In this document: piece after piece, positions 21,761 through 51,632 of the stretch
Numbering within the stretch: position 1 is the first letter of the stretch
Layout: each line of letters opens with the position of its first letter
Assembly (NCBI GenBank): GCA_027039485.1
Contig: JALWDZ010000026.1
Coordinates: 1,093 to 65,092 of the forward strand
Reading direction: 5' to 3'
DNA length: 64,000 nucleotides
Origin: Candidatus Shapirobacteria bacterium
Lineage (GTDB): Bacteria > Patescibacteriota > Microgenomatia > UBA12405 > UBA6130
The notes under the pieces: model-generated
What the model was told of the DNA's origin: nothing
Databases searched by the model: none
Seen by the model: only the letters and a program-made list of their open reading frames with translations
Translations under genes and position numbers: made by a program

Positions 21761-22528
21761 TTAATAGAAAATATTACTTTTGCCCGCCGGGTTAGCGCTG
21801 GGGCTAGAAGACAAGGAAGGTTGTGGAGAAGAATAATGGAAAGTTTCTAGTTTTTTTAATACTTCCTTCTCTCCCTTAGTCAAAACAAAATCAGCAGGCT
21901 TTATCGAGATTGCCTTAAAGCGCGCGACATGACCGGCAAAATATAAACGCACCGAAAGCCTCAGCCGTAATAATTTAGCATCCTTGCCTTGGCTGTCAAA
22001 GCTAAATTCAATTGGCTGCAAAAGCGGTAAATTTGTTTCCAAATCCTTTAAAAAAGGTAAAAGATTTTTTCTTTCGCCAACAATTTCTAAATCAAGACGG
22101 GCTGTCGCCGGCGCTGATTTTTTGCGTGCCGAAGGTGTCGCTGTTTCTATCTGGCCCAAATCAAAACGCAAACTCTCAATCAAAAAACCATTGCGTTGGC
22201 AAGGAGCATCTAAAGCGAAGAGGACGCTAGCAATATCAGTTTGGCGTGGAAATGCTCTTTGCACCCAAAGAAGAGAATTTTTTAAGCTTTGCCAATCCCA
22301 ATTTTGCAAAACAGCCAGCTCTTCGGTTTTCTGGCGCAATATTTTTTGCTTTAGGCGCCACTGTTGCCATTCCTGCCTAGTTTGTTTTACAGCCGGCACC
22401 CAAAAAAGGAGCCCCGCCAAAAAAACTAAGCCCACTAAACCCCAATACAGCAAGAGGCGGCGAACAATTTTATTTTTAGATGCCAACGAAAACAGGCGCA
22501 GTTGCATCTCCAACCTATTCCCCATCAT
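21761..22528 (-). CDS. pilO: type IV pilus assembly protein PilO-like
   Basis: Single N-terminal TM plus coiled coil, downstream of pilM-pilN in the same operon. Confidence 0.4.
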   Translation of the reverse strand: MMGNRLEMQLRLFSLASKNKIVRRLLLYWGLVGLVFLAGLLFWVPAVKQTRQEWQQWRLKQKILRQKTEELAVLQNWDWQSLKNSLLWVQRAFPRQTDIASVLFALDAPCQRNGFLIESLRFDLGQIETATPSARKKSAPATARLDLEIVGERKNLLPFLKDLETNLPLLQPIEFSFDSQGKDAKLLRLRLSVRLYFAGHVARFKAISIKPADFVLTKGEKEVLKKLETFHYSSPQPSLSSSPSANPAGKSNIFY

Positions 22529-23076
22529 GAGTGATGCTTTTGAATAGATAAGACAAAAAAAGTTTTTGCCGGCGTTACCGTTAAAGTTTGTAAAGTAATT
22601 ATTCTGAATTGAGCAGTCGGGAAAAACGCCCGAAACGTATCCAACTTTTTCTCAAAGGCAGCTAAATCCAGCAAATCAGGCCAATAACCCTGGAGAATCA
22701 TTGTCTGCCCCTGCATTTTGAAATTGCTAATTACTGCCTTCTGACCCACAAATTTTTGAATAACAGCCAAATAAAAACTATATTTATCTCTCTTTTGCAA
22801 AACGGTACCCGCCTTACGCAATTCTACTTTTAAATATTTTTGTTGGGCTAATTGGGGAGCAAAAGTAGCCTTAGCTTGCTCTCTGGCTTGAATCTGACTT
22901 TGTAGTCGAACAAGCTGCTTTTTCAGCCAAAAATTACCTCCAATTGTTAATAAAACTAGAATAAGAAAGCTAAGAGCCAAAATAAGTGCCCTGGGGCGCC
23001 AGAAATTCAACCAGCGCCAGTATTGCAAATCTTCCCGTGTCCGCCCACCCAAAAGATTTACTCTATTCACCGCCAC
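22525..23076 (-). CDS. pilN: type IV pilus assembly protein PilN-like
   Basis: VNLLGGR start, single TM, coiled coil. Translationally coupled to pilM. Confidence 0.5.
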   Translation of the reverse strand: MAVNRVNLLGGRTREDLQYWRWLNFWRPRALILALSFLILVLLTIGGNFWLKKQLVRLQSQIQAREQAKATFAPQLAQQKYLKVELRKAGTVLQKRDKYSFYLAVIQKFVGQKAVISNFKMQGQTMILQGYWPDLLDLAAFEKKLDTFRAFFPTAQFRIITLQTLTVTPAKTFFVLSIQKHHS

Positions 23077-24074
23077 TGCCTTTCCGCCAAACCAATAGCC
23101 GCAGAAAAATCTAATTTTCTTTTCAAAAAGTTTTTATCTATTGTCTCTGCTAGCTGCATATTTGCCATCGGGGCGCCCATCTGCACTTCAATACCAATAG
23201 TCCTGATCAATTCGTCAGATAGCTTGGGCAGAGCGCTTTCTTGCCCAGAAAGAATAATCAAATCTACCGTTTCATGCCACTCCTCGTTAAAGGCAACCAT
23301 CGTTTGTCGGGCATCTTCGATCAAGCGTGTTAACAAAGGCAAAAGCGCTTTGCGCACTTTATTCTGCCATTTACCTTTTTCAAAACCATAAACATTTTTA
23401 TATTCTTGGGCCTTTAAATTATCCATTCCTAGGGCAACGCTTACGGCCCGGGTAAAGGCTTGGCTACCCACCGGAACAATACGGCTAAGATATGGCACGG
23501 CATCTTTAACTACTAAAAACAATGTTTCCTGCTGCTTGATGTCAAAAATAAGCGTCGGTTTGGCCCGAGCAGGCACCAAGGCGCGCGTTAAGGCAATGCC
23601 TTCATTTTCAACCGCCAGAGGCACCAAATCAGCCAAAGTTAATAATTGTTGAAGCCCATCCAAAAAGCTTTTTCGGGTGGCCACCACCCAAACATATTGT
23701 TGGCCATTATCCATCTTCTTAACTACCTGATAATCCATTTGAGCCTCAGTCACTGGATAGGGAATAAAAGTATCAGCCTCATAACGCAGGGCTGAAGCAA
23801 TCTCTTCCTCTTTCATCGGCGGCAAAACAACCAAACGACTAATAACCATTTTCTCAGGAATACCAACTACCACCTGTTTTGTTTTTATATTGCCAAGGGC
23901 CAAAAGTTTGTTAAGCTCGGGGAGAAGATTTTTTCTATTCCGCTCGTTAGCAAAATCGAGGCCAAAGTTGTTAACAACTTCTTCGAGAACAGTTAGGGTA
24001 AAATTAACGCCGCTTTTTTTTACCTGGGCAATCTGCAAAGCATTGTTGGTCAAATTGAGGCCAAAGTAATCCAT
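23067..24074 (-). CDS. pilM: type IV pilus assembly protein PilM (actin-like ATPase fold)
   Basis: 335 aa, N-terminal LGLDIG-like start (FGLNLTNNALQIAQV), actin/FtsA-like fold. Confidence 0.7.
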   Translation of the reverse strand: MDYFGLNLTNNALQIAQVKKSGVNFTLTVLEEVVNNFGLDFANERNRKNLLPELNKLLALGNIKTKQVVVGIPEKMVISRLVVLPPMKEEEIASALRYEADTFIPYPVTEAQMDYQVVKKMDNGQQYVWVVATRKSFLDGLQQLLTLADLVPLAVENEGIALTRALVPARAKPTLIFDIKQQETLFLVVKDAVPYLSRIVPVGSQAFTRAVSVALGMDNLKAQEYKNVYGFEKGKWQNKVRKALLPLLTRLIEDARQTMVAFNEEWHETVDLIILSGQESALPKLSDELIRTIGIEVQMGAPMANMQLAETIDKNFLKRKLDFSAAIGLAERQWR

Positions 24075-24111: not shown

Positions 24112-24609
24112 TTAAATTTTTTTTCCCAAAATCTTGTGAAGATAAAAATGATCAGACTTTTTGCCCACCGTGCCCATAAGCGATTTTTCCTGCACCTCGA
24201 GATCAAAATTGATAGTAATTTCTGGATATGATGAGCTTAACGGTTGACAGCGAGCTTGGAAATTTTTACATTTCACCGTTTTCGGAGTGAGGGCACTACT
24301 ATTAGAAGCAACGGCCCCGTTTTGGCAGCTAAAAACAGTGATCTCCCCATCTCGCCCCCAAAATGTGATTCTGTCTCGGTTAGCGCCATCGCAAAGGTCG
24401 GGGTGGTCGGCAAAACGTTGCAAGTAATCCTCTATAGCTAAAATTGCTGTACTCCCGCTTTGCCGCAACAATTTGCTGCTCAGCGCCTTATTTTGCCCTC
24501 GCAAGCTCATTACAAAAATAGCCGCTCCTACAGTTGCTAAAATAGCAAAAGTGCTAACAACAACTAAATTCTCAATCAGAGAAAAGCCCAGATGCCTTTT
24601 CATTGCCAA
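24112..24609 (-). CDS. prepilin-type minor pilin/pseudopilin
   Basis: Class III signal with cleavage motif G|FSLIE followed by a hydrophobic helix. Confidence 0.55.
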   Translation of the reverse strand: MAMKRHLGFSLIENLVVVSTFAILATVGAAIFVMSLRGQNKALSSKLLRQSGSTAILAIEDYLQRFADHPDLCDGANRDRITFWGRDGEITVFSCQNGAVASNSSALTPKTVKCKNFQARCQPLSSSYPEITINFDLEVQEKSLMGTVGKKSDHFYLHKILGKKI

Positions 24610-25010
24610 TTACTATAAACAGTAGCCATTTCTACCATGCCTCTTTTGCTCCACCAAACTTTCACCTTGACGGTCACATCTTTTTGCGTACCGCTAATAT
24701 GACAGTTTTGATAACAGGTTTGACAGGTGAAATATTTATAGCCCTGGCAATTTGTTTCTTGTTGGCATTTATTACAAAGAGTGCTCAAATTACCCCACCA
24801 AGATTGGTCTAGTTTTGCCACCCTAATATCCTCTAGCTGCTTTTTAGCTAATTGGGTGGCTAAAGTTTTTTGTCGGTTAAACCGAGCAGTGGCAATAATA
24901 AAAGTAGTTGCCGCTGCTAATCCCGAAAGCAAAAGGGCAGAAATAGAAATTACAAAAACTACTTCCAGCAAGGATTGACCTTTTTCTTTCTGGCCTATTT
25001 TTATTGACAT
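24600..25010 (-). CDS. prepilin-type pilin-like protein
   Basis: KGQSLLEVVFVISISALLL N-terminal prepilin helix, Cys-containing C-terminus. Confidence 0.5.
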   Translation of the reverse strand: MSIKIGQKEKGQSLLEVVFVISISALLLSGLAAATTFIIATARFNRQKTLATQLAKKQLEDIRVAKLDQSWWGNLSTLCNKCQQETNCQGYKYFTCQTCYQNCHISGTQKDVTVKVKVWWSKRGMVEMATVYSNWQ

Positions 25011-25570
25011 GCCTGCTCCTCGATAGTTCCCACCTTATATAAATTCACTTGGCGGCAACGGCCCTGGTAATAAAGACGAAAATAGCTTGGGTCGGTGGTG
25101 ACAGCACTTAACCGTCCTTCTAAAGCCAAAAAACGAAGCTTTTGGTTGTCGTCGCCATCACGATAAAGCCAATTACTCAAAGACTGCCATTCTTTTTCGC
25201 TAATAGTTTGCCAGGGCTGCTGGTAGTTATCGCAAACTTGGCGGTATTTCAAACTTTTATTAACGCTCCAAATTTCATAATAAGCCAATTCGTTGCATTG
25301 GCGGCTTTTTACACCGGCTCGCGCTTGACTGCGAAGCATGGCCAGATCTGTCGCCAAAACCTGAGCAGCCATATCCACCTGTTTTTTGGCCAAATAAAAG
25401 CGATAACCAGCAAAACTAAAACCTATTAGAAGACTAGCAATAGCTAAAGATACTAAAAGCTCTAAAAGGGTAAGGCCTTTCATTCTACGGCGGCGAAAGA
25501 TGATAATTGCAAATTGTGTGCCAATTATTACCACACCGAGGATTACGAGGACAACCATTGCGATTCCCAC
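25001..25570 (-). CDS. prepilin-type pilin-like protein
   Basis: MKGLTLLELLVSLAIASLLIG prepilin N-terminus. Confidence 0.55.
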   Translation of the reverse strand: MGIAMVVLVILGVVIIGTQFAIIIFRRRRMKGLTLLELLVSLAIASLLIGFSFAGYRFYLAKKQVDMAAQVLATDLAMLRSQARAGVKSRQCNELAYYEIWSVNKSLKYRQVCDNYQQPWQTISEKEWQSLSNWLYRDGDDNQKLRFLALEGRLSAVTTDPSYFRLYYQGRCRQVNLYKVGTIEEQACQ

Positions 25571-25946
25571 TAGATTCTAACGCAGCGCAAAGTACATAAT
25601 CAGCACCATTAGCAGAATAATAATAATAGTGTTGCCCCCCCTTAGGATCCTGAGGGAATTCGTGCATATAGGTAACACCATTACAAGTCCAAGCTCCTGA
25701 TGCAGGGGGTAAGCAGGCTCGACAAGTACCTCCATCGTTATAAGGATAACAGCCAATATCGCTGCGAATCATTTCCAAAACTGACCGGATTTGCTCTAAA
25801 TCCGCTTTTCTCTTATCATCCCGAGCCTTCCGGCCAGCCGATTGATAAGACACCAAGGCCACCGAAGACAGAAGAATAATAATCGTGGTTACTACCAATA
25901 ACTCGATAAAAGTAAAGCCTTTCTTCATTGAAGATTGCTCAAACAA
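25485..25946 (-). CDS. type IV pilin (tandem paralog 1)
   Basis: KKGFTFIELLVVTTIIILL, then RKARDDKRKADLEQIRSVLEMIRSD and a Cys-rich C-terminal domain. Confidence 0.7.
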   Translation of the reverse strand: MFEQSSMKKGFTFIELLVVTTIIILLSSVALVSYQSAGRKARDDKRKADLEQIRSVLEMIRSDIGCYPYNDGGTCRACLPPASGAWTCNGVTYMHEFPQDPKGGQHYYYYSANGADYVLCAALESSGNRNGCPRNPRCGNNWHTICNYHLSPP

Positions 25947-26329
25947 AAATACTTTCCTCTGCCATAATTACAACCATTATTAGTGCCAGTACTTCGGGCA
26001 TTACCATTACTGGCCTCTAGTTGCGCACAAATACAATAAGAGTCGCTTGTACACTTCCAAGAATAATTTCGGGAAGGTTTAGGATCCCTAGGCAAACCAC
26101 CAGGCAAATAAGTATTTCCCGGATTACAACCAACCGGATATCGGTCATGTACCGCCCGGTATTGCTCTAAGGCTTTTTGGACCGCTTTAATATCCTGGCG
26201 GCGGCGGGCATCTCGGGCCCGTTTTTGGGCTGCCGAGTAAGAAGTAGAAATAACAGCCATTAAAACAGCGATAATAGAGATAACTACCAACAATTCAAAG
26301 AGAGTAAAACCGGCATTCTTTTTCATCAT
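25925..26329 (-). CDS. type IV pilin (tandem paralog 2)
   Basis: NAGFTLFELLVVISIIAVLMAV, then KRARDARRRQDIKAVQKALEQYRAVHDRYP. Confidence 0.7.
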   Translation of the reverse strand: MMKKNAGFTLFELLVVISIIAVLMAVISTSYSAAQKRARDARRRQDIKAVQKALEQYRAVHDRYPVGCNPGNTYLPGGLPRDPKPSRNYSWKCTSDSYCICAQLEASNGNARSTGTNNGCNYGRGKYFCLSNLQ

Positions 26330-26811
26330 TGACTACATACATAATAACAGTTTTCGGAACAGTTTGCTTGGCAAATCGTTTCCGGACAACGCTGGCTTGA
26401 ATCGCTAATATCTACATCACCGCCATTTTCTAATTCAGCCCAGAGGCGAAAGCCATCGCCATCATTACTCACACAATAGCCGTAATGGTGGTTGCCTCCA
26501 AGAGGGTCATCAGGCACTTTGGTCATGTAGGTAGTATTGCCTTCTTGCCACTGGCTGCCAAAAAGTAGTGGGGGAGTGGGATAAGCCTGATGGTCGTTGT
26601 AATAAAGGCGAAGGCTATTTTTAATTTCCCAAAGATCTTGCTTCCGCTGGCTATCCCGGGCCCGCTGCCGAGCCGACATTAAATTAGGCAAAAGTATCCC
26701 GGCTAAAATAGCAATAATCGAGAGGACCACTAAAAGCTCAATGAGGGTAAACCCTTTTCGTCTCAGAAGGGTAAACCCTTTTTGCTTCGGAAGGGTAAAT
26801 CCTTTTTTCAT
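26326..26811 (-). CDS. type IV pilin (tandem paralog 3)
   Basis: KGFTLIELLVVLSIIAILAG, then RQRARDSQRKQDLWEIKNSLRLYYNDHQAYP. Confidence 0.7.
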   Translation of the reverse strand: MKKGFTLPKQKGFTLLRRKGFTLIELLVVLSIIAILAGILLPNLMSARQRARDSQRKQDLWEIKNSLRLYYNDHQAYPTPPLLFGSQWQEGNTTYMTKVPDDPLGGNHHYGYCVSNDGDGFRLWAELENGGDVDISDSSQRCPETICQANCSENCYYVCSQ

Positions 26812-27362
26812 GGAAGGCGAACGTTAGAACTAGTAACGCCAAAATTATATGTCTCACCGGCGCATTGGTAGCCATTATTATTATACTTATTATAATCAGG
26901 GTCATGGCTATTTTCCAAAACAGAAAAAAGTTTAAAATAGGTTCCGTCCGATTGGTAGCAATAGTGAAAACTACGCCGCGGATCCTGCGGTAACCGCTTC
27001 ATATAAACAACAGTGGCGTTATTAATATTTTCCTCGAAAGCATCTCCCCAATCTAGAACTGTATTTTGGGGACAATGGCGGTTAACAACAATTTTACCTG
27101 TCTCTTGGCCAGAACAATCAGTGCTTAAGGGGTAAGAGCGGTGATCGTTATAATACATTTCTAAGGCTCGGGCAATATTACTTAAGTCTGCCTTCCGTTG
27201 GGCATCGCGTGCTTTCTGCTGGCTAGTATGGTACTGACCAAAGCCAATGCTTGCCAAAATACCCAAAATAGCCATCACCACCAACAGTTCTATTAAAGTA
27301 AACCCTCTCCTCATTTTTTTATTGACCACAAGTGGCATCATAACAACAAGCGGTGCCCTCAC
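26808..27362 (-). CDS. type IV pilin (tandem paralog 4)
   Basis: RRGFTLIELLVVMAILGILASIG, then QKARDAQRKADLSNIARALEMYYNDHRSYP. Confidence 0.7.
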   Translation of the reverse strand: MRAPLVVMMPLVVNKKMRRGFTLIELLVVMAILGILASIGFGQYHTSQQKARDAQRKADLSNIARALEMYYNDHRSYPLSTDCSGQETGKIVVNRHCPQNTVLDWGDAFEENINNATVVYMKRLPQDPRRSFHYCYQSDGTYFKLFSVLENSHDPDYNKYNNNGYQCAGETYNFGVTSSNVRLP

Positions 27363-28026
27363 TATTACATCTATACTCTACACCAGGACAACAAGTCGAG
27401 CAAGTATCTGGCAAGCAGTAATGGTTATTTTCTCCCCCGCAAGTTGGCAAATAACATCCTGAGGGGAGGGTTGGGACAGGCGTGGGGGTAAGCATTTTTG
27501 TCGGTACAGGCGTGTTTGTTGGTTTATTGTTGACTTGCCCTGGGGGAGTAATATTGGGACTTGCTAAACCATAGGTATACTCTTGACCGTCTACTTGGCA
27601 ACCATCAGCGCAATATTCTTTTGGCCTAGGATAAGCCAAATTGGCATAAATAGCGAACCAGGTAGGACAATCGTTATCCTCAACGACAATTTTATAAGGT
27701 TGATGGCTTTGGGGATCACAGGGAACGATGTCTAACCAGGGGCGAAAATCATGGCTGTCGCAATGTTGCAACTTAACTAAATCCTCGCCATGAGGATAAC
27801 AACCATTGTCATTATAATAATCCTCCATGGCTCGTTGTAATTCGTGCAAATCGCGGCGCCGGCGGCCGTCATCAGCTTTACGAATTTGGGCTAAATAATT
27901 CATCAAAAAGATAATGGCCAAAATAACAATAATGGCCATTGCTATTAAAATTTCTACCAGAGTTACTCCTTGTTGGTTGCCTTTTGCTACCATGGCAGCA
28001 ATTTTAAAATATAATCGCCCCACCAC
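27319..28026 (-). CDS. type IV pilin-like protein with Thr/Pro linker and Cys-rich C-terminal module
   Basis: GVTLVEILIAMAIIVIL, then RKADDGRRRRDLHELQRAMEDYYNDNGCYP. Next a TPVPTKMLTPTPVPTLP linker, and an about 45 aa tail with 11 Cys. Confidence 0.6.
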   Translation of the reverse strand: MVGRLYFKIAAMVAKGNQQGVTLVEILIAMAIIVILAIIFLMNYLAQIRKADDGRRRRDLHELQRAMEDYYNDNGCYPHGEDLVKLQHCDSHDFRPWLDIVPCDPQSHQPYKIVVEDNDCPTWFAIYANLAYPRPKEYCADGCQVDGQEYTYGLASPNITPPGQVNNKPTNTPVPTKMLTPTPVPTLPSGCYLPTCGGENNHYCLPDTCSTCCPGVEYRCNSEGTACCYDATCGQ

Positions 28027-28742
28027 CAGCTAATTAGAGCGGCGGCAACTAGAAACGGCCCAAAAGCAACTGCCGTTTTCCAATGGGCTCGGCGTCGCCA
28101 GAGAAGGAACCCGGCCCACAGCCCTCCGGCCAAAAAAGCTAGATAAAACAAAAATAGGAGGCGCTGCCAACCCAACCAAAGGCCAAGGACAAAAACTAAC
28201 TTAGCATCACCCAACCCCATTCCTTTTCGACCAGTAATCAGATAAAGGAAAAGAAAGAAGAAAAGCCCGCCAAAAGCAGCTAAAAAGTCCAACCGGGGGA
28301 GGAAAAGCACCAAAACCAGCAGGGAAAGGAGAAAAACATCGGGAATAATTTGGTAATGAGCGTCAAAAAAGAAAATGGCTAAGAGAAACCAAACCAAAAG
28401 CAAATACATTCCCAGCCACGGCCAGGCTAAATTTTGCTGCCGCCACCAAACAAAAGTAGCCAAAAACAATAGACCGCCTAAAAGTTCTAGAATAAACCAC
28501 TCGGGATTTACTTTAGCCCCGCAGGTCCGGCACCGGCCGCGCAACAAAAGGAAAGATAAAAGAGGGATATTTTCCCACCAAGCTAACTGGCGATTACAAT
28601 TGTCGCAGTGGGAACGGCCCCACAAATCCAACCCTCCCTTTTGGGGATAACGACTAATTAAAACACCCAAAAAGCTCCCCCCGCTCGCCCCAAGAGCAAA
28701 CAGGAGGAGCTCCCAAAATATCATCTTTACTGGGGCACACAT
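27987..28742 (-). CDS. pilD: prepilin peptidase (A24 family)
   Basis: N-terminal Zn-binding CDNC...CRTCGA, catalytic GMGLGDAKL motif, about 7 TM. Confidence 0.8.
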   Translation of the reverse strand: MCAPVKMIFWELLLFALGASGGSFLGVLISRYPQKGGLDLWGRSHCDNCNRQLAWWENIPLLSFLLLRGRCRTCGAKVNPEWFILELLGGLLFLATFVWWRQQNLAWPWLGMYLLLVWFLLAIFFFDAHYQIIPDVFLLSLLVLVLFLPRLDFLAAFGGLFFFLFLYLITGRKGMGLGDAKLVFVLGLWLGWQRLLFLFYLAFLAGGLWAGFLLWRRRAHWKTAVAFGPFLVAAALISWWWGDYILKLLPW

Positions 28743-29383
28743 TTAAACAATGAATTTGTTCTGTCTGTCCAAGTAGCACTATCTATTTGGCTCTGACTGG
28801 TAACTGCGGTAATCTGGGTTGGCACCCCATCGGCGGTAGTGATGCCCAAATCCTTAAGCTTTGAACTTAGTTTTCTGTTTGCCTTTGCTTTAGGAATAAA
28901 GCAAACATAAACGGCTCCGCCATTGCCTGCTTCTTTAAAAAGATAGAGTCTATTCAAATCACTCCTGATATTATCGGCAAAAGGATCCTTTTGGGCAAAA
29001 GAGGCCTTTAATTCATCCGTCTTTATCAACTCTCCATAATTGCCATTAGCATCCTTGCAGCTGGAAACTTCAGCATTATAAGAACTGCCCGCACAAACAC
29101 CAAAGCCCGGCATTTTGCTCGTTAAACCCAAAACCTGGGACTCGTCAGCTCCATTGCCTTCGCCCCAAACTTCATCATCCCACGGATAATATTCTTGGGA
29201 AGCATAGTACCGCTCCAAGGCGCTCAAAACTTCGGCGGCATCATTTTGAAATTTCGCATCCCGAGCCTTATTGGTTTGTTCTACTGGATTTAAAGTAGAA
29301 AGAACCGCCACCGACAAAATAGCAATTAAGGAAATAACAATCAATAACTCAACTAGAGTAAAACCTTGTTTCAGTTGTTTCAT
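28727..29383 (-). CDS. pilA: type IV pilin, candidate major pilin (immediately downstream of pilC)
   Basis: KQGFTLVELLIVISLIAILSVAVL, then NKARDAKFQNDAAEVLSALERYYAS, 218 aa. Confidence 0.65.
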   Translation of the reverse strand: MKQLKQGFTLVELLIVISLIAILSVAVLSTLNPVEQTNKARDAKFQNDAAEVLSALERYYASQEYYPWDDEVWGEGNGADESQVLGLTSKMPGFGVCAGSSYNAEVSSCKDANGNYGELIKTDELKASFAQKDPFADNIRSDLNRLYLFKEAGNGGAVYVCFIPKAKANRKLSSKLKDLGITTADGVPTQITAVTSQSQIDSATWTDRTNSLFKCVPQ

Positions 29384-29399: not shown

Positions 29400-30602
29400 C
29401 TAAAATTGGCTGGTTAAGTTATAAATTGGCATAATCACGGCAAAAACTAAAAAGCCAACTCCAATACCTAACACTATCATGATAAGTGGCTCAATAGCAC
29501 TTGTCAAGGTTTTAACCCGTTGATCAGCTTCTATTTCAAAAAAATGAGCCAGGCGGAAAAGAATGGTATCCAATTTGCCTGTCTGTTCGCCGGTGGCAAC
29601 CATTTCTACCAGAATATCGGGGAAAATCATTTGTTCCCGCAACGACTCAGAAAGAGGAAAGCCCTTCTCGATCCGTTGGTCGACCCGTTCAAGAGCTTTC
29701 TGGTAAACCATATTACCGGCGGCTCGACTAATAGTTGCCACCCCATCTACCAAAGGCACCCCGGTATTAACCATCATCCCTAAAGTCCGGGTAAGATTGG
29801 TAAGAAGAGTGGCTTGCAAGAGAGGGCCTAAAATGGGTATCCGCAATTTTATTTCATCATACCGATAGCGCATCTCTGGTTGGCGCATTAAAACCTTCCC
29901 GGCCACCACTCCCGCCACTGCCAAGAAAGGTAAAAGCCAAACCAAAACGCCGCTTAAGCTGGCAATATCCATCAAGACGCGCGTTTCCCAAGGCAGTTGG
30001 GTATTAAATTCATTGTAAAGATTGGCCATCTTAGGAATGACAAAAGTTACCACAATAAAAATAACCCCTCCCATACCCACCAAAATAATCGCTGGATAAA
30101 TCATTGCCCCTTTTACCTTAGCCAAAAATTCTTGCCGTTTTTCCAAAGTATCCGCCAATTGCGTGAGCACCTTTTCTAAAACCCCAGCTTCCTCGCCGGC
30201 ACTGACTGAAGCAATGTAAATATCGCCAAATACCTCGCGATGCTTTTTTAGGGCCGCCGTAAAAGAGGAACCACCCTCGATATCGCGGAGAAGATCGCCA
30301 ATAACCAACTGCAACTTGCCGCTTTCCTGTTTTTCCAGTAAGGACAACGCTTCAGTCAATGGCAACCCGGCCTCAATCATCGTTGCCAGTCGGCGAGTAA
30401 AGGAGGCTACCTGCCCTCCCGAGACCCGGCTAAAGTGAAGGCGCAGCTTTTGCCAAAACGAAAGCTGATAAGGTTTAATGTCAACTAAAACCAAGCGGCG
30501 CTTTTTTACCAAAGAAATTGCTTCCCGCAAGTTGCGCGCCTCTACCAAGCCTTTATTGACTTTGCCTTGCCAATCTCGGGCTCGAAAAACGTATTTTTTC
30601 AT
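29400..30602 (-). CDS. pilC: type IV pilus inner-membrane platform protein PilC (GspF family)
   Basis: Two GspF repeats, 3 TM blocks, 400 aa. Confidence 0.85.
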   Translation of the reverse strand: MKKYVFRARDWQGKVNKGLVEARNLREAISLVKKRRLVLVDIKPYQLSFWQKLRLHFSRVSGGQVASFTRRLATMIEAGLPLTEALSLLEKQESGKLQLVIGDLLRDIEGGSSFTAALKKHREVFGDIYIASVSAGEEAGVLEKVLTQLADTLEKRQEFLAKVKGAMIYPAIILVGMGGVIFIVVTFVIPKMANLYNEFNTQLPWETRVLMDIASLSGVLVWLLPFLAVAGVVAGKVLMRQPEMRYRYDEIKLRIPILGPLLQATLLTNLTRTLGMMVNTGVPLVDGVATISRAAGNMVYQKALERVDQRIEKGFPLSESLREQMIFPDILVEMVATGEQTGKLDTILFRLAHFFEIEADQRVKTLTSAIEPLIMIVLGIGVGFLVFAVIMPIYNLTSQF

Positions 30603-30604
30603 TT

Positions 30605-31693
30605 TTACTCCGGTTTTATTATCGGCTGGCGGCGCTGCTGCTGTAAACTGCGCATTAATTCCTTAGGCCGGATAGCATATTCTTTGGCCACTTCAAGGCT
30701 AACGACCCCCTTATTAACCCAACTCGCCAAAGAAGTTTCCAAGAGGCGCATCCCCACTTCAGCTGAAGTTTGGATAATATTGTCAATCATATGGGTTTTA
30801 TCCTCACGGATAGCCGTCTGGACAGCGTGGTTATTTAGAAGAAGTTCAATGGCCGGCACCCGCCCCGGCTTGATGGTTGGAATTAGGCGCTGGGAAATAA
30901 CCGCCAAAAGGCTGTTGGCCAATTGCATTCGCACTTGGGCCTTAGCTCCGGTCGGAAAAACATCAACAATCCGGTCAATTGTCTCCGCTGCCGAATTAGT
31001 GTGCAAGGTAGAAAAAACCAGATGGCCAGTTTCGGCTACTGTCAAAGCAGCTTTAATCGTTTCCAAATCGCGCATTTCGCCAATCAAAACTACATTAGGG
31101 TCTTCGCGCAAAGCTGAGCGGAGGGCATTGGTCCAGCTGAGAGTATCGGAGCCAATTTCTCGCTGGGAGAAAACCGACTTTATGTCTTTGAAAAAATACT
31201 CAATGGGGTCTTCAATCGTCACAATATGCTCGGCCCGCGTTTCGTTAATCTCCCCCAACATAGCGGCTAGAGTGGTCGACTTACCATGGCCGGTGGGCCC
31301 GGTTACCAAGACAAAGCCCTGTCGTTCCTGAGTCAGTTTCCTTAGAATTGGCGGCAAATTTAAATCGTCAAGGCGGGGAATATTGGGAGGAATCAAACGC
31401 ATCGCTATTGCCAGGGAATCGCGTTGAAAATAGAAATTGACTCGAAAGCGCGCCTGGTCTTGAAAGACATAAGAAGAATCCATTTCCCGCTTGTCAAGAA
31501 GTTCCTGATATCTCTTCTCGCCCAACATCACCTTGGCCATGGCCATAATCTCCTCCTTGGCCATCGGCGTACCCTCGGGCAAACTAAAAAGCTGGCCATT
31601 AACCCGCAACAGGGGCCGCGCTCCTGCCAAAAGGTGGACATCTGAAGCCTTGTCCTTCACCGCCAGCGAGAGAATAGCTGCTAACTTATCCAT
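30605..31693 (-). CDS. pilT: twitching-motility retraction ATPase PilT
   Basis: Walker A GPTGHGKSTT, Asp box, His box, 362 aa, no N-terminal GSPII domains. Confidence 0.85.
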   Translation of the reverse strand: MDKLAAILSLAVKDKASDVHLLAGARPLLRVNGQLFSLPEGTPMAKEEIMAMAKVMLGEKRYQELLDKREMDSSYVFQDQARFRVNFYFQRDSLAIAMRLIPPNIPRLDDLNLPPILRKLTQERQGFVLVTGPTGHGKSTTLAAMLGEINETRAEHIVTIEDPIEYFFKDIKSVFSQREIGSDTLSWTNALRSALREDPNVVLIGEMRDLETIKAALTVAETGHLVFSTLHTNSAAETIDRIVDVFPTGAKAQVRMQLANSLLAVISQRLIPTIKPGRVPAIELLLNNHAVQTAIREDKTHMIDNIIQTSAEVGMRLLETSLASWVNKGVVSLEVAKEYAIRPKELMRSLQQQRRQPIIKPE

Positions 31694-31694
31694 G

Positions 31695-33479
31695 CTAATA
31701 TTTAGCCACCCGGAGAACTTCCTCCACGGTGGTAATACCCTCTAACGCCTTCAAATAGCCATCCTGCATCATCGTTACCATGCCCTCCTTTACAGCCGCT
31801 TTTTTAATTTCCTCGGCCGGCGCTTGTTTAAGGATAAGCTGCATAATTGCATTAGTCACCGGCAAAGTCTCAAAAATCCCAATTCGACCGTAATAGCCGG
31901 TAAAGTTGCACCCCTGGCAGCCTTTGCCGCGGTAAAGCTTTGGTTGGTCACCGGCTTTGGGGGGCCAAAGCGGGCCAAGCACTTTTTTCATTCCTTCAAC
32001 CACTTTTTCTGGCGGCTGGTAACTTTCCTTACAGTCATTATGGATCCGGCGGACAATCCGTTGGGCAACCACTGCGTTCAAAGCAGAAACTAGCAAAAAG
32101 GGCTCAACCCCCATATCAATTAACCGTGGCGCAGCTCCGGCAGCATCGTTAGTATGTAGTGTCGAAAAAACCAAGTGGCCAGTAAGGGCTGCCTCAACCG
32201 CCAGTTCAGCCGTCTCTTTATCGCGAATCTCGCCAACCATAATAATATCCGGATCCTGGCGCAAAAACGAACGCAGGGCCGACGCAAAAGTAAGCCCCGC
32301 CTGGGGATTTACCTGGACCTGGTTAACCCCTTTGATGTGGTATTCAACCGGATCTTCGATAGTCATCACGTTAACTTTGGTAGTGTTAATCTTAGAAAGA
32401 ACTGAATAAAGAGTAGTCGTTTTCCCGGCTCCAGTTGGACCGCAGACCACAATCATTCCGTGGGGGCGGCTAATGGCCTCTTGCAAATCGCGGAGTGTTT
32501 TCCCCCGCAAACCTAATTCTGGCAAGTCGGGAATTTTTTGCGTTTTCTTCAAAAGCCGCATAACTACCTTTTCGCCATAGACAGTCGGTGCTGTCGAAAC
32601 CCGGACGTCGATTTCCTGCCCATCACTGCGAAAAGTAAAGCGCCCATCCTGGGGCACCCGCTTTTCATCGATTTTCATATCGGCCAAAATTTTAATTCGG
32701 GAAACAACGGCATCATGGATCCGCCGCGGCAAAATAAGTTTCTCTTGCAAAATGCCGTCAATGCGGTAACGGACCCGGGTATCGCCCTCTTGGGGTTCAA
32801 TATGAATATCCGAAGCCCGGGCCTTGACCGCAAATTGCAAAATTGTCGAAACAACCTTGGCAATTGGCGCCTCGTGGATAATATTCTCCAGATGGTTAAC
32901 ATCCAAGACATTCTTTTGATAAGTTTTAGCCGTTTCCCCTAGGGCCTTAGTCACCTCGGCGGTAATTTCCTGGTTATAATGTTCGTCGATTGTCTCCTGG
33001 ATAAGCTTTTTATCAGCCAGGTAAGGCTCTATTTTTAAGCCTGTTTTCTTTTCCAAAAACTCCACCGTCTCCAAATCTAAAGGATTGGCCATAGCCACCG
33101 CCAGCTTTTTCTCTTTAGGGTCATAACGAAAGGGCACCACCAGATAATACTCGGCCACGCTTCGGGGAATAAAAGTAATGCTTTGGGGATCGAAAGCAAT
33201 TTCTTCTAAATCAGCATAGGGAACGCCCAAAAACTTCGCCTTAGCAGCTAGCAATTTCTTGGTGGGGATTAGATTTTCTTCATGAATAATATCTTCCACA
33301 TTCTTGCCGGTTTGAATTGCCTTTAGTTGAATATTTTTTACCTGGGCTGGCGAGAGCAGCTTCTCCTGGGCCAGAACGTCCAAAAGCGAGTGGGGCAGTT
33401 TTGTTTCTTCCATCACTTCCATTATAAACAAAATAAATCCCAAATCACAAGCACCCTGCCCCGACGGACGTCGGGGCAA
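31695..33479 (-). CDS. pilB: type IV pilus assembly ATPase PilB (GspE family)
   Basis: N-terminal GSPII domain, Walker A GPTGAGKTTT, tetracysteine CQGC..., 594 aa. Confidence 0.9.
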   Translation of the reverse strand: MPRRPSGQGACDLGFILFIMEVMEETKLPHSLLDVLAQEKLLSPAQVKNIQLKAIQTGKNVEDIIHEENLIPTKKLLAAKAKFLGVPYADLEEIAFDPQSITFIPRSVAEYYLVVPFRYDPKEKKLAVAMANPLDLETVEFLEKKTGLKIEPYLADKKLIQETIDEHYNQEITAEVTKALGETAKTYQKNVLDVNHLENIIHEAPIAKVVSTILQFAVKARASDIHIEPQEGDTRVRYRIDGILQEKLILPRRIHDAVVSRIKILADMKIDEKRVPQDGRFTFRSDGQEIDVRVSTAPTVYGEKVVMRLLKKTQKIPDLPELGLRGKTLRDLQEAISRPHGMIVVCGPTGAGKTTTLYSVLSKINTTKVNVMTIEDPVEYHIKGVNQVQVNPQAGLTFASALRSFLRQDPDIIMVGEIRDKETAELAVEAALTGHLVFSTLHTNDAAGAAPRLIDMGVEPFLLVSALNAVVAQRIVRRIHNDCKESYQPPEKVVEGMKKVLGPLWPPKAGDQPKLYRGKGCQGCNFTGYYGRIGIFETLPVTNAIMQLILKQAPAEEIKKAAVKEGMVTMMQDGYLKALEGITTVEEVLRVAKY

Positions 33480-33930
33480 ATTCTAATTACCAAAATCCTA
33501 ATCCGCCAGCTGGCGGACTAAACAAATTCAAATGACCAAAATTCAAATGCTCAAAAACATTGAAACTGTGTCATTCTGAGCGTTAGCGAAGCCCCAGGAC
33601 GTTCCGCCAGCTGGCAGAGTCGGGGTAAAAATCTAGCGAAGCGCATTAATCCCACACCTGACTAACTCTCATGCGCTCGCTCCGCTCGCTAGATCTTTAC
33701 CCCTACCGAAGGTGGATTTATTCCACCGAAGGGGGGCTTCGTCGCTTCGCTCCTCAGGATGACAAGGGGAGATGTCTTTTGTTTTGGTCATTTGATCATT
33801 AGGTAATTTGGTTATTGTTTAGGATTTGGGTCATTAGGATTTAGGATTTTGCTCAACCTAGTTCCTAGCTCCATTTGAACTTTTCACTTTCCCCTTCTTT
33901 CTCACTTTTCACTTTTCACTTAAACTTTTC
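33478..33930. repeat. nested-palindrome MITE/REPIN-like element, longest copy, core present as an inverted duplication
   Basis: Arms aaattctaattaccaaaatcctaatc.../...ggatttgggtcattaggatttaggatttt. Internal 230-nt imperfect hairpin built from two inverted copies of gtcatYctgag...gaagcccc...ggggtaaaRatctagcga. 3' cctag/cactttt tract. Confidence 0.8.
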
Positions 33931-35037
33931 ATATAGCTCTTCCACTTTTTCTTTGAATTCCCGGCGGAAGCGGGCCTCGTCAAACTGTTCTGCTTGTCGG
34001 CGGCAGGCTGCCGGTTGGTAATGCCACTTTCGGAAACGCCGCAAAGTTTTTACCAAAACCTCAACCGTCGCCGGCCCAAAAAACAGGCCTGTTTTCCCGG
34101 CAACCACCGTTTCCCGCGCCCCTCCCCCATCATAGGCAATAACCGGCCGGCCGCTGGCCTGGGCTTCTAAACTCACCAAGCCAAAGTCTTCCTCCTGGGG
34201 CATGATGAGTGCCTGTGCCTGCCGATAAAGCTGCTTTAATTGGCTTTCGCTTACCTTGCCCCAGAATTTAATATTTTTCTTGGCCTTCTTCATTAATTTT
34301 TTTTGCGCCCGCCCTTCGCCGACAATCCACAACGGCCAACCCAGGCGGTTAAAAGCTTCAACTGCCAGTTCAACTCGCTTGTACTCCACTAAACGGCTCA
34401 CTACCAAAAAGGGGGCATCCTTGTCAGCTGGTTTTGGGGCCATCTTGAAACGGCGATAATTAATGCCCGGATAAACAACTTCACTCGGCCGCTGATAATA
34501 ATGCCAAACCCGTTCGGCTACTGTTTTCGAAATTGCCAAAATAGCGTCCGGCCGCTGGCCATAAAGCCAGTCATCCTGCCTCAAGCCTGCCAGCCAGGGA
34601 AAAAGCCGCCGCCAAGGAGTTAAATCAGGGCGCCAAAGATAGCGCGGCGGTGTCAAACAGTAATGGAGATGGAAAGTATCTGGCGGGGTGATGATTGCTT
34701 TAGCGGGCCCTGAGCTTAGGGAAATGACCAAATCAAAACTTCGAAAGGAAAAACTTTCAAAGGCATAACCCAAAAGGGGATAATACCAATAAACATGCCT
34801 TTTTGCCGCCGGGAATTTTTGCAAAAAACTAGTTTCCACCAGCCGGTGGCCCAAGAAATTTGCCTTTTCCCGATCATAAACTGCAGTAAAAATCCTTGCC
34901 TCTGGCCAAATTTTTAATAAGCTCAAAATCACCCGCTCGGCACCCCCCCAACGGTTAAGCCAGTCGTAAACCAAAGCGACCCTCACCGGAGCACCTCCCG
35001 ATAAAGACCTGCTATTCCCCGGGCCATTTTTTGCCAA
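33916..35037 (-). CDS. glycosyltransferase family 1
   Basis: LEAQASGRPVIAYDGGGARETV E-x7-E motif. Confidence 0.7.
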   Translation of the reverse strand: MAKNGPGNSRSLSGGAPVRVALVYDWLNRWGGAERVILSLLKIWPEARIFTAVYDREKANFLGHRLVETSFLQKFPAAKRHVYWYYPLLGYAFESFSFRSFDLVISLSSGPAKAIITPPDTFHLHYCLTPPRYLWRPDLTPWRRLFPWLAGLRQDDWLYGQRPDAILAISKTVAERVWHYYQRPSEVVYPGINYRRFKMAPKPADKDAPFLVVSRLVEYKRVELAVEAFNRLGWPLWIVGEGRAQKKLMKKAKKNIKFWGKVSESQLKQLYRQAQALIMPQEEDFGLVSLEAQASGRPVIAYDGGGARETVVAGKTGLFFGPATVEVLVKTLRRFRKWHYQPAACRRQAEQFDEARFRREFKEKVEELYEKFK

Positions 35038-36140
35038 CTGTAGCGTTTAGCCCACCGAAGGCCCAGCCGACGGTACTTTTGTCGTTGCTGTTCATTCAAA
35101 ATTACTTCCACTTGATGCCGCAATTCTGATGGGGAGTTGGGGTCAAAATAAAGGGCAGCCGGTCCCAAAGTTTCCGGAAGGGCCCCAGCTCGAGCGGCAA
35201 TCACCGGACAGCCACGGGCCATTGCCTCTAGCCCCGGCAAGCCAAACCCTTCTAAGCGACTAGGGAATACCAAGGCTAAAGCCTGGCGGTACAATTCTGC
35301 CAAAACGTTGTCTTCTACAAAGCCTACCAGGAGCACCTTTTTGGCCACGCCCATTCTTTGGGCTTCTTGCCAAAAACGGTCCCGAAAGACGCTTCGCGCC
35401 GCCACTACCACCAATTGGGGAGCCGCCGGCCATTCTTGCAACATTTTTAAAAGCAAAGTCGCATTCTTGTGAGGATAAAGGCTGCCAACATAGAGTAAAA
35501 ACGGCTTTTGGATGCCGTCTGGCAATTTTCCAGCTTTTCCTTTCGAAAGAATGTCAGGATCCACTCCTTCGGGGATTACCTCAATCCTGCGAACACATTG
35601 ATAATGGCGCCGCAAATCTTGGGCTGTCCACCGGCTAGGGGTAATTATTGCCTTGGCGCGGCAGACTGCCTGGCGAAAAACAAGCCGGTAACCCCAACGC
35701 TTTAGGCGATAACCCAAAAAATTGCGGGTCGTAGCCGCCTTGCCAGAAGAGTGATGCTTAATAAGGTCATGAACCGTAACTACAAAGGGCGCTGGCAAAA
35801 ATAAGGGAACATTAAAATGAAGAAAATGAACCAAGCTGGGCCGGAGGCGCCGAAGAAAAAGGGGCACTTGCCACTGTTCTCGCCAAGAGTAATGGCTGGC
35901 TGGCAAGGGATAAAAAGAATAGAAATTTTTGGTTATTTTTTTTAGATGAGGAATATCGTCTGGCTGGGCCAAAACTCCGTAACGAAACTGCCGGCTAGCC
36001 ACCTCGGGCAAAAAACGCAAAAAATTCAAGCTATAGCGCCCCAAACCAGCATGTTTAAGGTTGGCCAGCCGGCCGTCGACAATAATCAATGGCTTCATCG
36101 TTGTTTCACCCGCCAAACTCGGTATTTTTCCAATAACCAC
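34983..36140 (-). CDS. glycosyltransferase family 1
   Basis: LEAMARGCPVIAARAGALPETLG E-x7-E motif. Confidence 0.7.
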   Translation of the reverse strand: MVIGKIPSLAGETTMKPLIIVDGRLANLKHAGLGRYSLNFLRFLPEVASRQFRYGVLAQPDDIPHLKKITKNFYSFYPLPASHYSWREQWQVPLFLRRLRPSLVHFLHFNVPLFLPAPFVVTVHDLIKHHSSGKAATTRNFLGYRLKRWGYRLVFRQAVCRAKAIITPSRWTAQDLRRHYQCVRRIEVIPEGVDPDILSKGKAGKLPDGIQKPFLLYVGSLYPHKNATLLLKMLQEWPAAPQLVVVAARSVFRDRFWQEAQRMGVAKKVLLVGFVEDNVLAELYRQALALVFPSRLEGFGLPGLEAMARGCPVIAARAGALPETLGPAALYFDPNSPSELRHQVEVILNEQQRQKYRRLGLRWAKRYSWQKMARGIAGLYREVLR

Positions 36141-37096
36141 CAGGCAACAACCATCAGCCAGCTAACCCAGCGCGGATAACGGCTTTGGTAATGCTTGCGG
36201 TAGAAAATGCGCATAGCTGCTACCGAGGCCCGGGCTACTTTTACTCGACCCGCTGACGATGTCTTCGCCAAGCGGCGGCTATGTTTTTTGAGCCCTGAGG
36301 CTACCCCCCGATAATGGATAATTTTGACTTGGGGCAAAAAGACTACCGGCCAATGGTGGTGATAAAGCTGGTAACAAAATTCAATATCCTCACCGTAAAA
36401 GAAATAATCTTCATCCCACCAACCAATTGCTTCACCAGCTTGACGGCGGACGAGAAGGAAAGCTCCGCTCGCCGCTTCTATTTGGTGGGGCCGACGGCTT
36501 TTTAGAAGCCAACCTAGATGGTAACCGGCAAACCAGTGGCTATAAGGAAATAGCCGCTCTAGACCACTAAAATGGCAAAACGCTCGCCAGGGAGTGGGGA
36601 AACCCCGGTGGCAGGCGTCGTCAAGACGGCCATTGGCTAATTCCAACCGCGGTGTTACCGCTCCCACTCGGGGATGGGTTATTAAATAATGCCAAGCAGT
36701 CCACAAAGTTCTCACTGGCACCACCGTATCAGGATTCAAGAAGAGAACGGTTTTCCCTCGGGCTAGCTGCACGCCAACATTATTGCCCGCTGCAAAGCCC
36801 CGGTTTTCTTCTAACGGCAAATACTTTATATCTAGCCTAGGCCCTGCTATTCGCCAGCCTTTTTTACCCTGCCAAGCAAAGCGCCGGGCACCCCGTTCCC
36901 GAAAATATTTTACTAACCGCTTCTTAACCGGCAGCGGCGAGTTGTTGTCAACAATAATAATTTCCGCCGGACGGATATCGGCTTTTAATCTTGGTGATTT
37001 TCCCGAAAAATCCACTAAACTAGCTAAAGAAGTGAACAAAAATTGATCAGCATTATAGTGAAGAATGACAATGGATAACCTTTTTTGTTCGTTCAT
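36095..37096 (-). CDS. glycosyltransferase family 2
   Basis: LSIVILHYN...IIVDNNSP, DxD/ED motif (YGEDIEFCYQL). Confidence 0.7.
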   Translation of the reverse strand: MNEQKRLSIVILHYNADQFLFTSLASLVDFSGKSPRLKADIRPAEIIIVDNNSPLPVKKRLVKYFRERGARRFAWQGKKGWRIAGPRLDIKYLPLEENRGFAAGNNVGVQLARGKTVLFLNPDTVVPVRTLWTAWHYLITHPRVGAVTPRLELANGRLDDACHRGFPTPWRAFCHFSGLERLFPYSHWFAGYHLGWLLKSRRPHQIEAASGAFLLVRRQAGEAIGWWDEDYFFYGEDIEFCYQLYHHHWPVVFLPQVKIIHYRGVASGLKKHSRRLAKTSSAGRVKVARASVAAMRIFYRKHYQSRYPRWVSWLMVVAWWLLEKYRVWRVKQR

Positions 37097-41163: not shown

Positions 41164-42134
41164 TCTTTTAAAGCTATTCGCAAAGCCTCTCCATAAGTTT
41201 CCTTTAAATAATTATTGCCGGTTATTTTCCCTATTATCCACGCCAACAAAGCCTTAGTAAATAAAAAGAGGCGGAGCAACCATTGTTGCCAAAAGCTAAA
41301 ATGGCGGCGGTAAAAATAAAGAAGCCCTCGATAAATATGCAAAATCCTCGTTTTTCTGCCCTCGGGAGAGCTAGCGCCGCCCAGATGCACTACCTTAGCA
41401 TCCCGATAAAAACCAATCCGAAACCCTAAGCGGCGGAGCCGGTAGCACCACTCGACTTCGTCCATATACATAAAAATACCCTCGTCAAAACCTCCGGAAC
41501 GGCGGAAGACTTCCCCACGCAAAAGCATAAAAGCTCCCATCACCCAGTCCGCCGGCCCAGTTTCTGACGGCGCTTTCATCGCCGCCGCCCCCCAACGGTC
41601 CAAGAAAAGCATCTGAAAAACACGGGGCAAGGTGGGGAAGACACCCACCGACGGCTGAGGGCTTAAATCCTTATTTAAAAGGCGGCAACCGATAAGATCG
41701 TATTCCGGATGGCTAGCCAGCCAAAGCAGGCTCTGGCTAATTGCCCCTTCAACCATAACAGTATCGGAATTAAGAAGGAGCAAGTATTCACCGCGGGCCA
41801 TGCGCATGCCCTGATTATTCCCCGCCCCAAAGCCAACATTTTTCTTATTTAAAACCACCCGCAGTCGCAACCGTTGTAACAATCCTTTTTTCTTTCGCCG
41901 GTTAAAATGCTGCAAATATTCTGCCGATCCATCCTGGGAATTATTATCAATAACGATTATCTCGGCAGGGATTATTTCTTCTTCTTGCTGCCGCCGGGCT
42001 AATTCGGCTGGAGAGAAAACTAGACGGCGGTCGTAACGGGCGATCGAAACCAACAACTGCTCTAAAAGTTTCTGGGTATTAAAATTAAGAATAATAATAG
42101 ATAAAACTGGCAGAAATTGGTTATTTTTAGGCAT
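41160..42134 (-). CDS. glycosyltransferase family 2
   Basis: IIVIDNNSQDGS, FGAGNNQG, MYMDEVEWCYR motifs. Confidence 0.7.
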   Translation of the reverse strand: MPKNNQFLPVLSIIILNFNTQKLLEQLLVSIARYDRRLVFSPAELARRQQEEEIIPAEIIVIDNNSQDGSAEYLQHFNRRKKKGLLQRLRLRVVLNKKNVGFGAGNNQGMRMARGEYLLLLNSDTVMVEGAISQSLLWLASHPEYDLIGCRLLNKDLSPQPSVGVFPTLPRVFQMLFLDRWGAAAMKAPSETGPADWVMGAFMLLRGEVFRRSGGFDEGIFMYMDEVEWCYRLRRLGFRIGFYRDAKVVHLGGASSPEGRKTRILHIYRGLLYFYRRHFSFWQQWLLRLFLFTKALLAWIIGKITGNNYLKETYGEALRIALKE

Positions 42135-51596: not shown

Positions 51597-51632
51597 TTTC
51601 CAATTTTACCACCCCCGTTTACCCTGTTATAA

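Follow-up and report, generated by a model that had tools for sequence, protein, structure and literature searches.

In the type IVa pilins of Pseudomonas aeruginosa (PAK/K122-4) and Neisseria (PilE), the D-region is a C-terminal, hypervariable disulfide loop that has been implicated in receptor binding. The modular pilins, represented in Streptococcus sanguinis by PilB, which bears a vWA module, and by PilC, whose module is a lectin, as well as by CofB of enterotoxigenic Escherichia coli (ETEC), instead present an effector module that is attached to a pilin carrier via a short linker and acts as an adhesin (Raynaud et al. 2021, PMC8179133). That survey lists phyla of the candidate phyla radiation (CPR), namely Magasanikbacteria and Falkowbacteria, amongst those with modular pilins, and predicts many more such proteins whose modules have no database signature. 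CPR organisms are believed to live in attachment to other cells, with type IV pili as the leading candidates for making the contact, yet hardly any lineage has an identified component by which the partner is recognised. Here we examine a gene on the minus strand of a 64,000-nucleotide stretch of DNA from a Candidatus Shapirobacteria bacterium (assembly GCA_027039485.1, contig JALWDZ010000026.1, positions 1,093 to 65,092; the window hereafter). By analogy with the modular pilins above, we consider it somewhat probable that its product is a modular type IV pilin of an uncultured, ultrasmall member of the Microgenomates (CPR), in which a Cys-rich mini-domain, carried on a stalk, serves as a ligand-binding head. 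The parts of the gene are as follows.

27319..27993, minus strand: coding sequence of the modular prepilin (P0001), 224 aa, from the list of open reading frames (ORFs), stop codon 27319..27321 included
27967..27993, minus strand: class III signal peptide MVAKGNQQG, with predicted prepilin-peptidase cleavage after Gly9
27550..27966, minus strand: pilin module V10..I148, a hydrophobic alpha1 helix and a globular domain with 6 Cys, ending in (Y)GxxSxNI
27463..27549, minus strand: Thr/Pro-rich linker T149..P177, TPPGQVNNKPTNTPVPTKMLTPTPVPTLP, with low model confidence, indels and high nonsynonymous divergence
27322..27462, minus strand: C-terminal Cys-rich mini-domain S178..Q224, 47 aa with 10 Cys

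A first-pass annotation, made from the letters of the window, had described an ORF at 27319..28026 with a pilin domain, a linker and a Cys-rich tail, and this ORF is indeed present on the minus strand, its translation holding both the linker TPVPTKMLTPTPVPTLP and the tail GCYLPTCGGENNHYCLPDTCSTCCPGVEYRCNSEGTACCYDATCGQ. The true start is most likely the ATG at 27993, which yields 224 aa, since this ATG overlaps the stop codon of pilD (ATGGTAG) and the same start is called on two other assemblies. The whole protein contains 16 cysteines, six in the pilin module and 10 in the 47-residue tail; as such, the Cys-rich character of the tail was correctly noticed and the reported count of 11 in about 45 residues was not. 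Cysteine accounts for 0.74% of residues across the long ORFs of the window. By the binomial distribution, a stretch of 47 residues would then hold 10 or more Cys with a probability of ~2e-12, and a comparable density is seen in none of the other real ORFs of the window.

The possibility that the tail is an artefact, arising from a frameshift or sequencing error in the C-terminal region (the refuting condition offered with the first-pass annotation), from misassembly, or from out-of-frame read-through of a shorter pilin, can be set aside with near certainty. Two independent assemblies, one of a Logan run and one of an ENA metagenome, contain the identical 224-aa protein (the source samples being SRR14326976 and ERZ23491132), and four homologues of 64-69% identity, from different metagenome-assembled genomes (MAGs), keep both the reading frame and all 10 tail cysteines; the MAGs of these close relatives bear the labels Candidatus Microgenomates and Candidatus Shapirobacteria. 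Furthermore, nonsynonymous divergence (pN) in the tail is low, at 0.12-0.26, while synonymous sites are largely saturated, and a module of this kind recurs in 27 proteins. This saturation precluded a dN/dS estimate for the majority of region pairs, for which reason pN and its synonymous counterpart pS are used in its place.

That the gene product is a type IV pilin, as the first-pass annotation had it, is borne out at the level of the leader, the fold and the genomic setting. The leader reads MVAKGNQQG|VTLVEILIAMAIIVILAIIFL, a short hydrophilic stretch up to a Gly that is followed by some 20 hydrophobic residues with a Glu at mature position +5 (Glu14), a residue at least 90% conserved in the family; Pfam N_methyl matches here with an E of 8e-7 (28.8 bits against a cut-off of 21.2). 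The structure model has the long alpha-helix at the N-terminus packed against an antiparallel beta-sheet that is expected of the pilin fold, and its best Foldseek matches in the PDB are type IV pilins and pseudopilins, with GspG/EpsG (T2SSG; 4lw9, 3gn9) the best for the pilin module. Residues 44-106 match Pfam T2SSG weakly, below the cut-off (E 0.008). The operon carries PilT and PilM/N/O and no secretin, and belongs to a CPR lineage, features that point to a type IV pilus of the monoderm type and away from type II secretion, and GspG itself is without a C-terminal Cys-rich module. Last, the gene is encoded together with a prepilin peptidase and with assembly machinery (pilB, pilT, pilC, pilMNO). 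A newly described CPR pilus, the Pam pilus (10.64898/2026.03.03.709456), was considered as a relative and discarded, its subunits being unrelated donor-strand-exchange pilins.

The notion of a module displayed on a flexible stalk has likewise held up. When modelled by AlphaFold2 (AF2) with an alignment of 50 sequences, the protein reaches a mean predicted local distance difference test score (pLDDT) of 87.6, with linker residues 152-166 below 50 and the tail at 91-97, where four short strands and a C-terminal turn are predicted; a model built with 5 close homologues alone gave a pLDDT of 49.7 and was unusable. Among close homologues, pN is 0.34-0.45 in the linker, which also carries indels, versus 0.13-0.19 in the pilin module and 0.12-0.26 in the tail, and the distance from the pilin module to the first core Cys of the tail ranges from 6 to 143 residues across 27 homologues. 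Given that model confidence falls in the linker and rises again in the tail, and that the linker varies while conservation of the tail matches that of the pilin module, the tail is, in our modelling, a separate conserved module behind a flexible, disordered linker. Family alignment and AF2 confidence agree on the order that defines a modular pilin, in which the pilin module closes at a conserved end, a variable linker follows and the additional module comes last.

The module itself belongs to a small family. Eight of its ten cysteines form a core (C185, C193, C198, C201, C202, C209, C216 and C222), arranged as C-x(3-11)-C-x4-C-x2-C-C-P-G-x4-C-x6-C-x5-C, and C180/C217 make up a clade-specific pair; in 26 aligned tails, invariance extends to the 8 Cys and to a single Pro, Gly and Asp each, with an Arg near-invariant. 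An exhaustive HMMER search of 1.84 billion representative proteins with the tail profile returned 18 proteins, 17 of which are pilins, 185-330 aa in length, that bear the module at their extreme C-terminus; the remaining one (P0022), a low-scoring 1635-aa repeat protein at E 1e-4, has no CCPG motif, and we regard its match as compositional. Combined with the family search, this brings the module to 27 proteins. Within the window the tail profile matches the six-frame translation once only, and a scan of genome contigs with the tail pattern found two true relatives, one in a Microgenomates MAG and one in a Shapirobacteria MAG. Three further matches of that scan, in Lachnospiraceae/Clostridiales (L005 1730..2467; L006 9923..10102), proved to be a chance TCCPGVEY inside a regulator with a helix-turn-helix domain. 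On the strength of its sequences, then, the CCPG mini-domain is an autonomous unit of 45-47 aa, found only on pilins and under purifying selection.

Known domain families offer no counterpart. Pfam-A searches by hmmscan with the tail (47 aa) and with the tail plus linker (73 aa) yielded no family even at E<=10, so that the match to knottin, EGF or antifreeze families that had been suggested for the Cys pattern did not materialise, and the profile of 26 tails found no significant match amongst all PDB sequences (the best was NFAP, E 0.18). We found no description of Cys-rich tails on CPR pilins in the literature searched. The CCPG module represents at least one undescribed, confidently predicted mini-protein fold family that current domain databases have missed. 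Measured against the modular pilins of Raynaud et al. (PMC8179133), the window protein shares the architecture, but where their operational definition looks for a catalogued domain that is not specific to pili, the tail has no Pfam family at E<=10 and no PDB match, and occurs only on pilins; since those authors themselves expect modules without a signature, it is the operational definition, and not the concept, that the protein falls short of, and the module supports their published expectation that modular pilins are under-counted. Further differences are that the window module is ~45 residues in length, held by cysteines and without an InterPro or Pfam signature, and that a long Thr/Pro-rich linker takes the place of a short loop.

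Several features of individual family members may be recorded here. A string in the tail, LPDTC, recalls the sortase signal LPXTG; homologues read LPNTC, IPNIC, IANTC and FANVC, none with Gly at the fifth position, and a sortase-like role was dismissed. The 64%-identical homologue (P0003; locus L008, 10001..10723) continues for 13 extra basic and aromatic residues past the last module Cys, QLKWKKVLPWWNY, and the other close homologues end 1-2 residues past it. In a 330-aa homologue (P0009), two different Cys-rich modules stand in tandem with TP-repeat linkers between them, an 8-Cys module, GCLASGGTWQAFSNSCVDSCYLVSNPRTPCLAAMRMGCECGPSRCWDSESNACVPN, preceding the CCPG module, which indicates that mini-domains of this kind can be strung like beads.

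The arrangement of these cysteines bears on what they do. Even Cys counts are found in 116 of 124 tails of the wider pilin family (tails of at least 25 residues), mostly 6, 8 or 10. In the clade of the window protein, the extra pair consists of a Cys that precedes core Cys1 by four residues and another that immediately follows core Cys7, and P0009 likewise has two extra Cys in the same two neighbourhoods, at slightly different positions; a pair that was gained jointly on two occasions is as would be predicted for an added disulfide between those two segments. Moreover, CPR lineages are reported to be enriched in an MdbA-like oxidoreductase encoded next to VKOR, which has been proposed to serve pilin folding (10.1101/335083). 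For these reasons, to which the invariance of the 8 core Cys and the even Cys counts of all pilin-like ORFs in the operon (given below) may be added, the formation of disulfides by the tail cysteines, rather than of a metal site, is the favoured interpretation of the sequences, and of the two options in the first-pass annotation (disulfide-knotted or metal-binding) it is disulfide bonding that is retained.

A Cys density of 10 in 47 residues, with a conserved CxxCC element, could nonetheless be taken for a metal-binding cluster (Zn, Cu or Fe; metallothionein-like or zinc-ribbon-like) that is borne on the pilus for metal capture or redox purposes, and many CPR inhabit anoxic groundwater, where disulfides are less favoured. 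We believe this to be quite improbable. The even counts and the paired gains described above speak against it, as does the disulfide machinery of the MdbA/VKOR type that CPR carry; there is no conserved His, and only one CxxC knuckle is present, where a zinc ribbon requires a pair of them. The AF2 fold of the tail is confident with no metal included, and no zinc-finger or metallothionein family was matched even at E<=10.

The size of the module (~35-45 residues is typical of knottins), the presence of what would be at least three disulfides, the CC doublet followed by P/G and the short beta-strands are reminiscent of inhibitor cystine knot (ICK) peptides such as huwentoxin-I and hainantoxin-IV, and six ICK spider toxins are indeed listed among the Foldseek matches of the whole protein. 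These matches are not significant (E 4-8, probability <=0.08), although a whole-protein query penalises short local matches, and no PDB chain matches in sequence; the window core has 8 Cys with spacing 3-11/4/2/0/6/6/5, and its two-residue loop from the second to the third core Cys lies outside the usual knottin spacing. At the level of the model, a knottin topology is therefore unproven, and nothing demonstrates the tail to be a knottin, EGF, antifreeze or metallothionein domain. A related proposition has the tail act as a knottin-like effector (a toxin or an inhibitor peptide), tethered or released, that is carried to the host cell of the episymbiont, with the linker as a protease release site. 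CPR do depend on host cells and contact them by pili, and the resemblance in size, Cys density and CC doublet would be accounted for; in light of the insignificant structural matches, the lack of a sequence match to any solved structure and the unusual spacing, and given that no processing protease or conserved cleavage motif was identified, we think such a role very unlikely.

The proposal that we prefer is of a modular pilin with a ligand-binding head, and may be outlined as follows. PilD would cleave the leader after Gly9, and the pilin module would insert into a type IV pilus built by PilB/PilT/PilC/PilMNO. After export, an MdbA/VKOR-type system would oxidise the tail to four disulfides (five in this clade), producing a rigid, protease-resistant knob. 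The Thr/Pro stalk of ~29 residues would hold this knob off the filament, most likely at or near the tip, where it may serve as the ligand-contacting head, whether in adhesion or in recognition, in the manner of modular pilins such as S. sanguinis PilB. Adhesion is known for those proteins, and we infer it for the tail by analogy.

The gene belongs to a complete type IV pilus operon, which also bears on whether the modular pilin is a major or a minor subunit. All genes of the operon lie on the minus strand, in the order pilB, pilT, pilC, a 218-aa pilin, pilD, the modular pilin, seven pilin-like genes and pilM/N/O-like genes, and the same order is found on identical contigs and on the relatives L003 and L008.

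31695..33479, minus strand: pilB, ATPase
30605..31693, minus strand: pilT, ATPase
29400..30602, minus strand: pilC, platform protein
28727..29383, minus strand: 218-aa pilin, candidate major pilin, Pfam N_methyl
27987..28742, minus strand: pilD, prepilin peptidase, Pfam A24_N_bact (E 1e-26) and Peptidase_A24 (E 9e-16), its stop overlapping the start of the modular pilin
24112..27362, minus strand: seven further pilin-like genes, 3' of the modular pilin, leader G|(F/L/Q)(T/S)L..E, 4-8 Cys each
21761..24074, minus strand: pilM-, pilN- and pilO-like genes at the end of the operon, from synteny, the equivalent 339-aa ORF of L008 matching PF11104 PilM_2

The pilB of the window matches Pfam T2SSE and MshEN, and T2SSF and T2SSE matches are recorded on the identical and syntenic loci. 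Six of the seven pilin-like genes were scanned and all carry Pfam N_methyl, with T2SSG above cut-off on three; the seventh (24112..24609) was named from its leader sequence and from the syntenic gene of L008 rather than by a Pfam scan, just as the pilM/N/O assignment is one of synteny, the window ORFs themselves not having been scanned.

Within this operon, a sigma-70-like promoter match (TTGACA-17-TATCAT, 11/12) lies at 29479..29507, inside the 3' end of pilC and ~95 nt 5' of the 218-aa pilin, and the same element occupies the same place in the 64%-identical relative L008 (8484..8512). Just past the stop of the 218-aa pilin, inside the start of pilD, there is a stem-loop of ~20 bp with a U-tract (28670..28714, -37.6 kcal/mol, z -4.4). 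Together these elements suggest that the major subunit is the 218-aa pilin and that read-through beyond it, to pilD and the modular pilin, is attenuated; as the 218-aa pilin, 5' of pilD, has a conserved promoter-like element of its own, the modular pilin is probably a minor pilin of low abundance.

A number of points weigh against the proposal as a whole. For the ligand-binding head there is neither experimental nor direct computational evidence of any ligand, and the tail is far smaller than the modules (vWA, lectin) of characterised modular pilins. The linker is just 6-14 residues long in several homologues, so that a stalk is not a general property of the family. The formation of disulfides is deduced from Cys parity and co-gain, and no oxidoreductase gene was found among those window ORFs (not every one of them) that were scanned against Pfam. 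The evidence on major versus minor status consists of consensus promoter and terminator matches only, and terminator-like sites are no commoner in this region than in shuffled sequence. Last, the tail could be an enlarged counterpart of the disulfide loop, C-terminal and variable, that ordinary pilins possess, and its role mainly structural or antigenic.

This last idea merits fuller consideration. Under it, the tail is a cap, an expanded D-region loop that stabilises the subunit in harsh surroundings, and its type varies between lineages under pressure from phages or predators to which pili are receptors, without there being a specific ligand. Like a D-region, the tail is C-terminal, surface-exposed, hypervariable between lineages on a conserved pilin module and, by our reading of its cysteines, constrained by disulfides; the short linkers of several homologues would suit a cap, and other pilins of the operon also end in small Cys clusters. 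Unlike a D-region, which is a single disulfide loop inside the globular domain, the tail appears as an independent domain with a putative 4-5 disulfides, located past (Y)GxxSxNI and a disordered linker. Moreover, among tails of one type, conservation equals that of the pilin module and includes non-Cys positions that are invariant (P, G, D) or nearly so (R), the disordered stalk of ~29 residues in this clade would be superfluous for a stabilising cap, and the pilin module already has 6 Cys of its own. We therefore rate the cap as unlikely, albeit still plausible.

Returning to the modular pilin with a candidate binding head, the wider family provides a view of how its tails vary. A full-length alignment search gathered 126 clusters that share a common pilin module, aligned up to the conserved (Y)GxxSxNI, after which the tails diverge; the labels within this family are Woesebacteria, Shapirobacteria and Levybacteria, and the pilin module is widespread in Microgenomates, where it is always the first gene after pilD. 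Clustering of the tails by composition-corrected BLAST and community detection (nearly all tails merge when composition is not corrected for) separated the CCPG type, with 27 members and no links to others, from a ..NCYY..CCGxGC type (37 + 17), a YACDxxGxCN..GHP type (15) and many small ones. The family thus bears at least 4 large unrelated Cys-rich tail types, or else large domains such as PF12733, and other tail types occupy the same slot directly after pilD on one Woesebacteria contig and one Shapirobacteria contig.

On these comparisons, a single pilin of conserved position bears different Cys-rich heads from one lineage to another, and the occurrence of unrelated Cys-rich tails on the same pilin module in the same operon slot points to a swapping of binding specificity. 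The stronger proposition is that the first pilin after pilD in Microgenomates is a dedicated carrier of interchangeable disulfide-rich heads (CCPG, YACD..GxCN, ..CCGxGC and others), which set the host cell or surface to which an episymbiotic CPR organism attaches. We offer this tentatively and with considerable doubt. Were it true, the receptor-binding specificity of a pilus would be encoded in cassettes, much as phages swap the tips of their tail fibres, and these cassettes would be assembled from previously undescribed mini-protein folds. The architecture itself would not surprise a pilus specialist; what is new is an undescribed disulfide-rich mini-module on a CPR modular pilin, together with an apparent family-wide exchange of heads in a fixed operon slot, and the swappable heads are a candidate that can be tested. 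In any case, a positionally conserved pilin whose tail is conserved within a clade and replaced between clades offers a concrete candidate for partner recognition in Microgenomates, and at 45 residues the module is small enough for synthesis, structure determination and binding screens.

Two observations on atypical family members belong beside this survey. P0061 and P0088, of up to 576 aa, have large tails without a Cys-rich module that contain PF12733, which we take to be cadherin-like. P0075 and P0078 are ~435 aa in length, with a pilin module that ends near residue 349 and a precomputed match to PF05635, and may be gene-call fusions.

Thr/Pro-rich segments of exported proteins are familiar targets of O-glycosylation, as in the Pmt-dependent O-mannosylation of Actinobacteria and the TfpW/PglL glycosylation of pilins. 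The first-pass annotation had connected the TP repeats of the linker with a large glycosylation locus placed directly downstream of pilB. A block rich in glycosyltransferase genes does exist at 33916..55231, with GT4, GT2, two PMT_2 enzymes of the GT-C type, LytR_cpsA_psr and a Polysacc_synt flippase, and housekeeping genes (a YchF-type GTPase and RuvB) are situated within it or at its edge; in the direction of transcription, however, the block sits 5' of pilB and not 3' of it. Three PMT_2 genes (GT-C, protein-mannosyltransferase-like) are found in the window, at 38286..39746, 45817..47247 and 59160..60623, and with the Thr/Pro-rich exported linker they constitute the likeness to known O-glycosylated segments, although no evidence ties these enzymes to the modular pilin. 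An O-glycosylated pilin would be expected to have a glycosyltransferase genetically linked to it; the locus stands beside pilB in this window, whereas L008, with the same pilus operon at 64% identity, has a DNA ligase, Fic and a DNA polymerase III subunit in the position 5' of pilB. The other flank, 3' of the pilus operon (RNase III, RecG and a penicillin-binding protein), is conserved in L008; the adjacency of glycosyltransferases and pilus genes is not. Furthermore, a linker of at least 40% T+P occurs in only 9 of the 27 tail-bearing homologues. As such, the comparison of loci does not support a functional link between the modular pilin and the glycosyltransferase locus, and O-glycosylation of the stalk, while possible, is not indicated by any of the evidence here.

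The other pilins of the operon also deserve a brief description. The nine pilin-like ORFs in 24112..29383 have Cys counts that are all even (4, 6, 4, 8, 6, 6, 4, 16 and 4), and PilT and PilC have zero. A small Cys cluster, LCNKCQQETNCQGYKYFTCQTCYQNC, is located ~30 residues before the C-terminus in the pilin encoded at 24600..25010, and another, CPETICQANCSENCYYVCSQ, is found at the C-terminus in the pilin encoded at 26326..26811. The latter gene (minus strand) contains a 24-nt tandem repeat of ~3 copies at 26744..26817, which results in a triplicated prepilin cleavage motif, MKKGFTLPKQKGFTLLRRKGFTLIELL, at the N-terminus of this neighbouring pilin, and the hydrophobic helix follows the last copy only.

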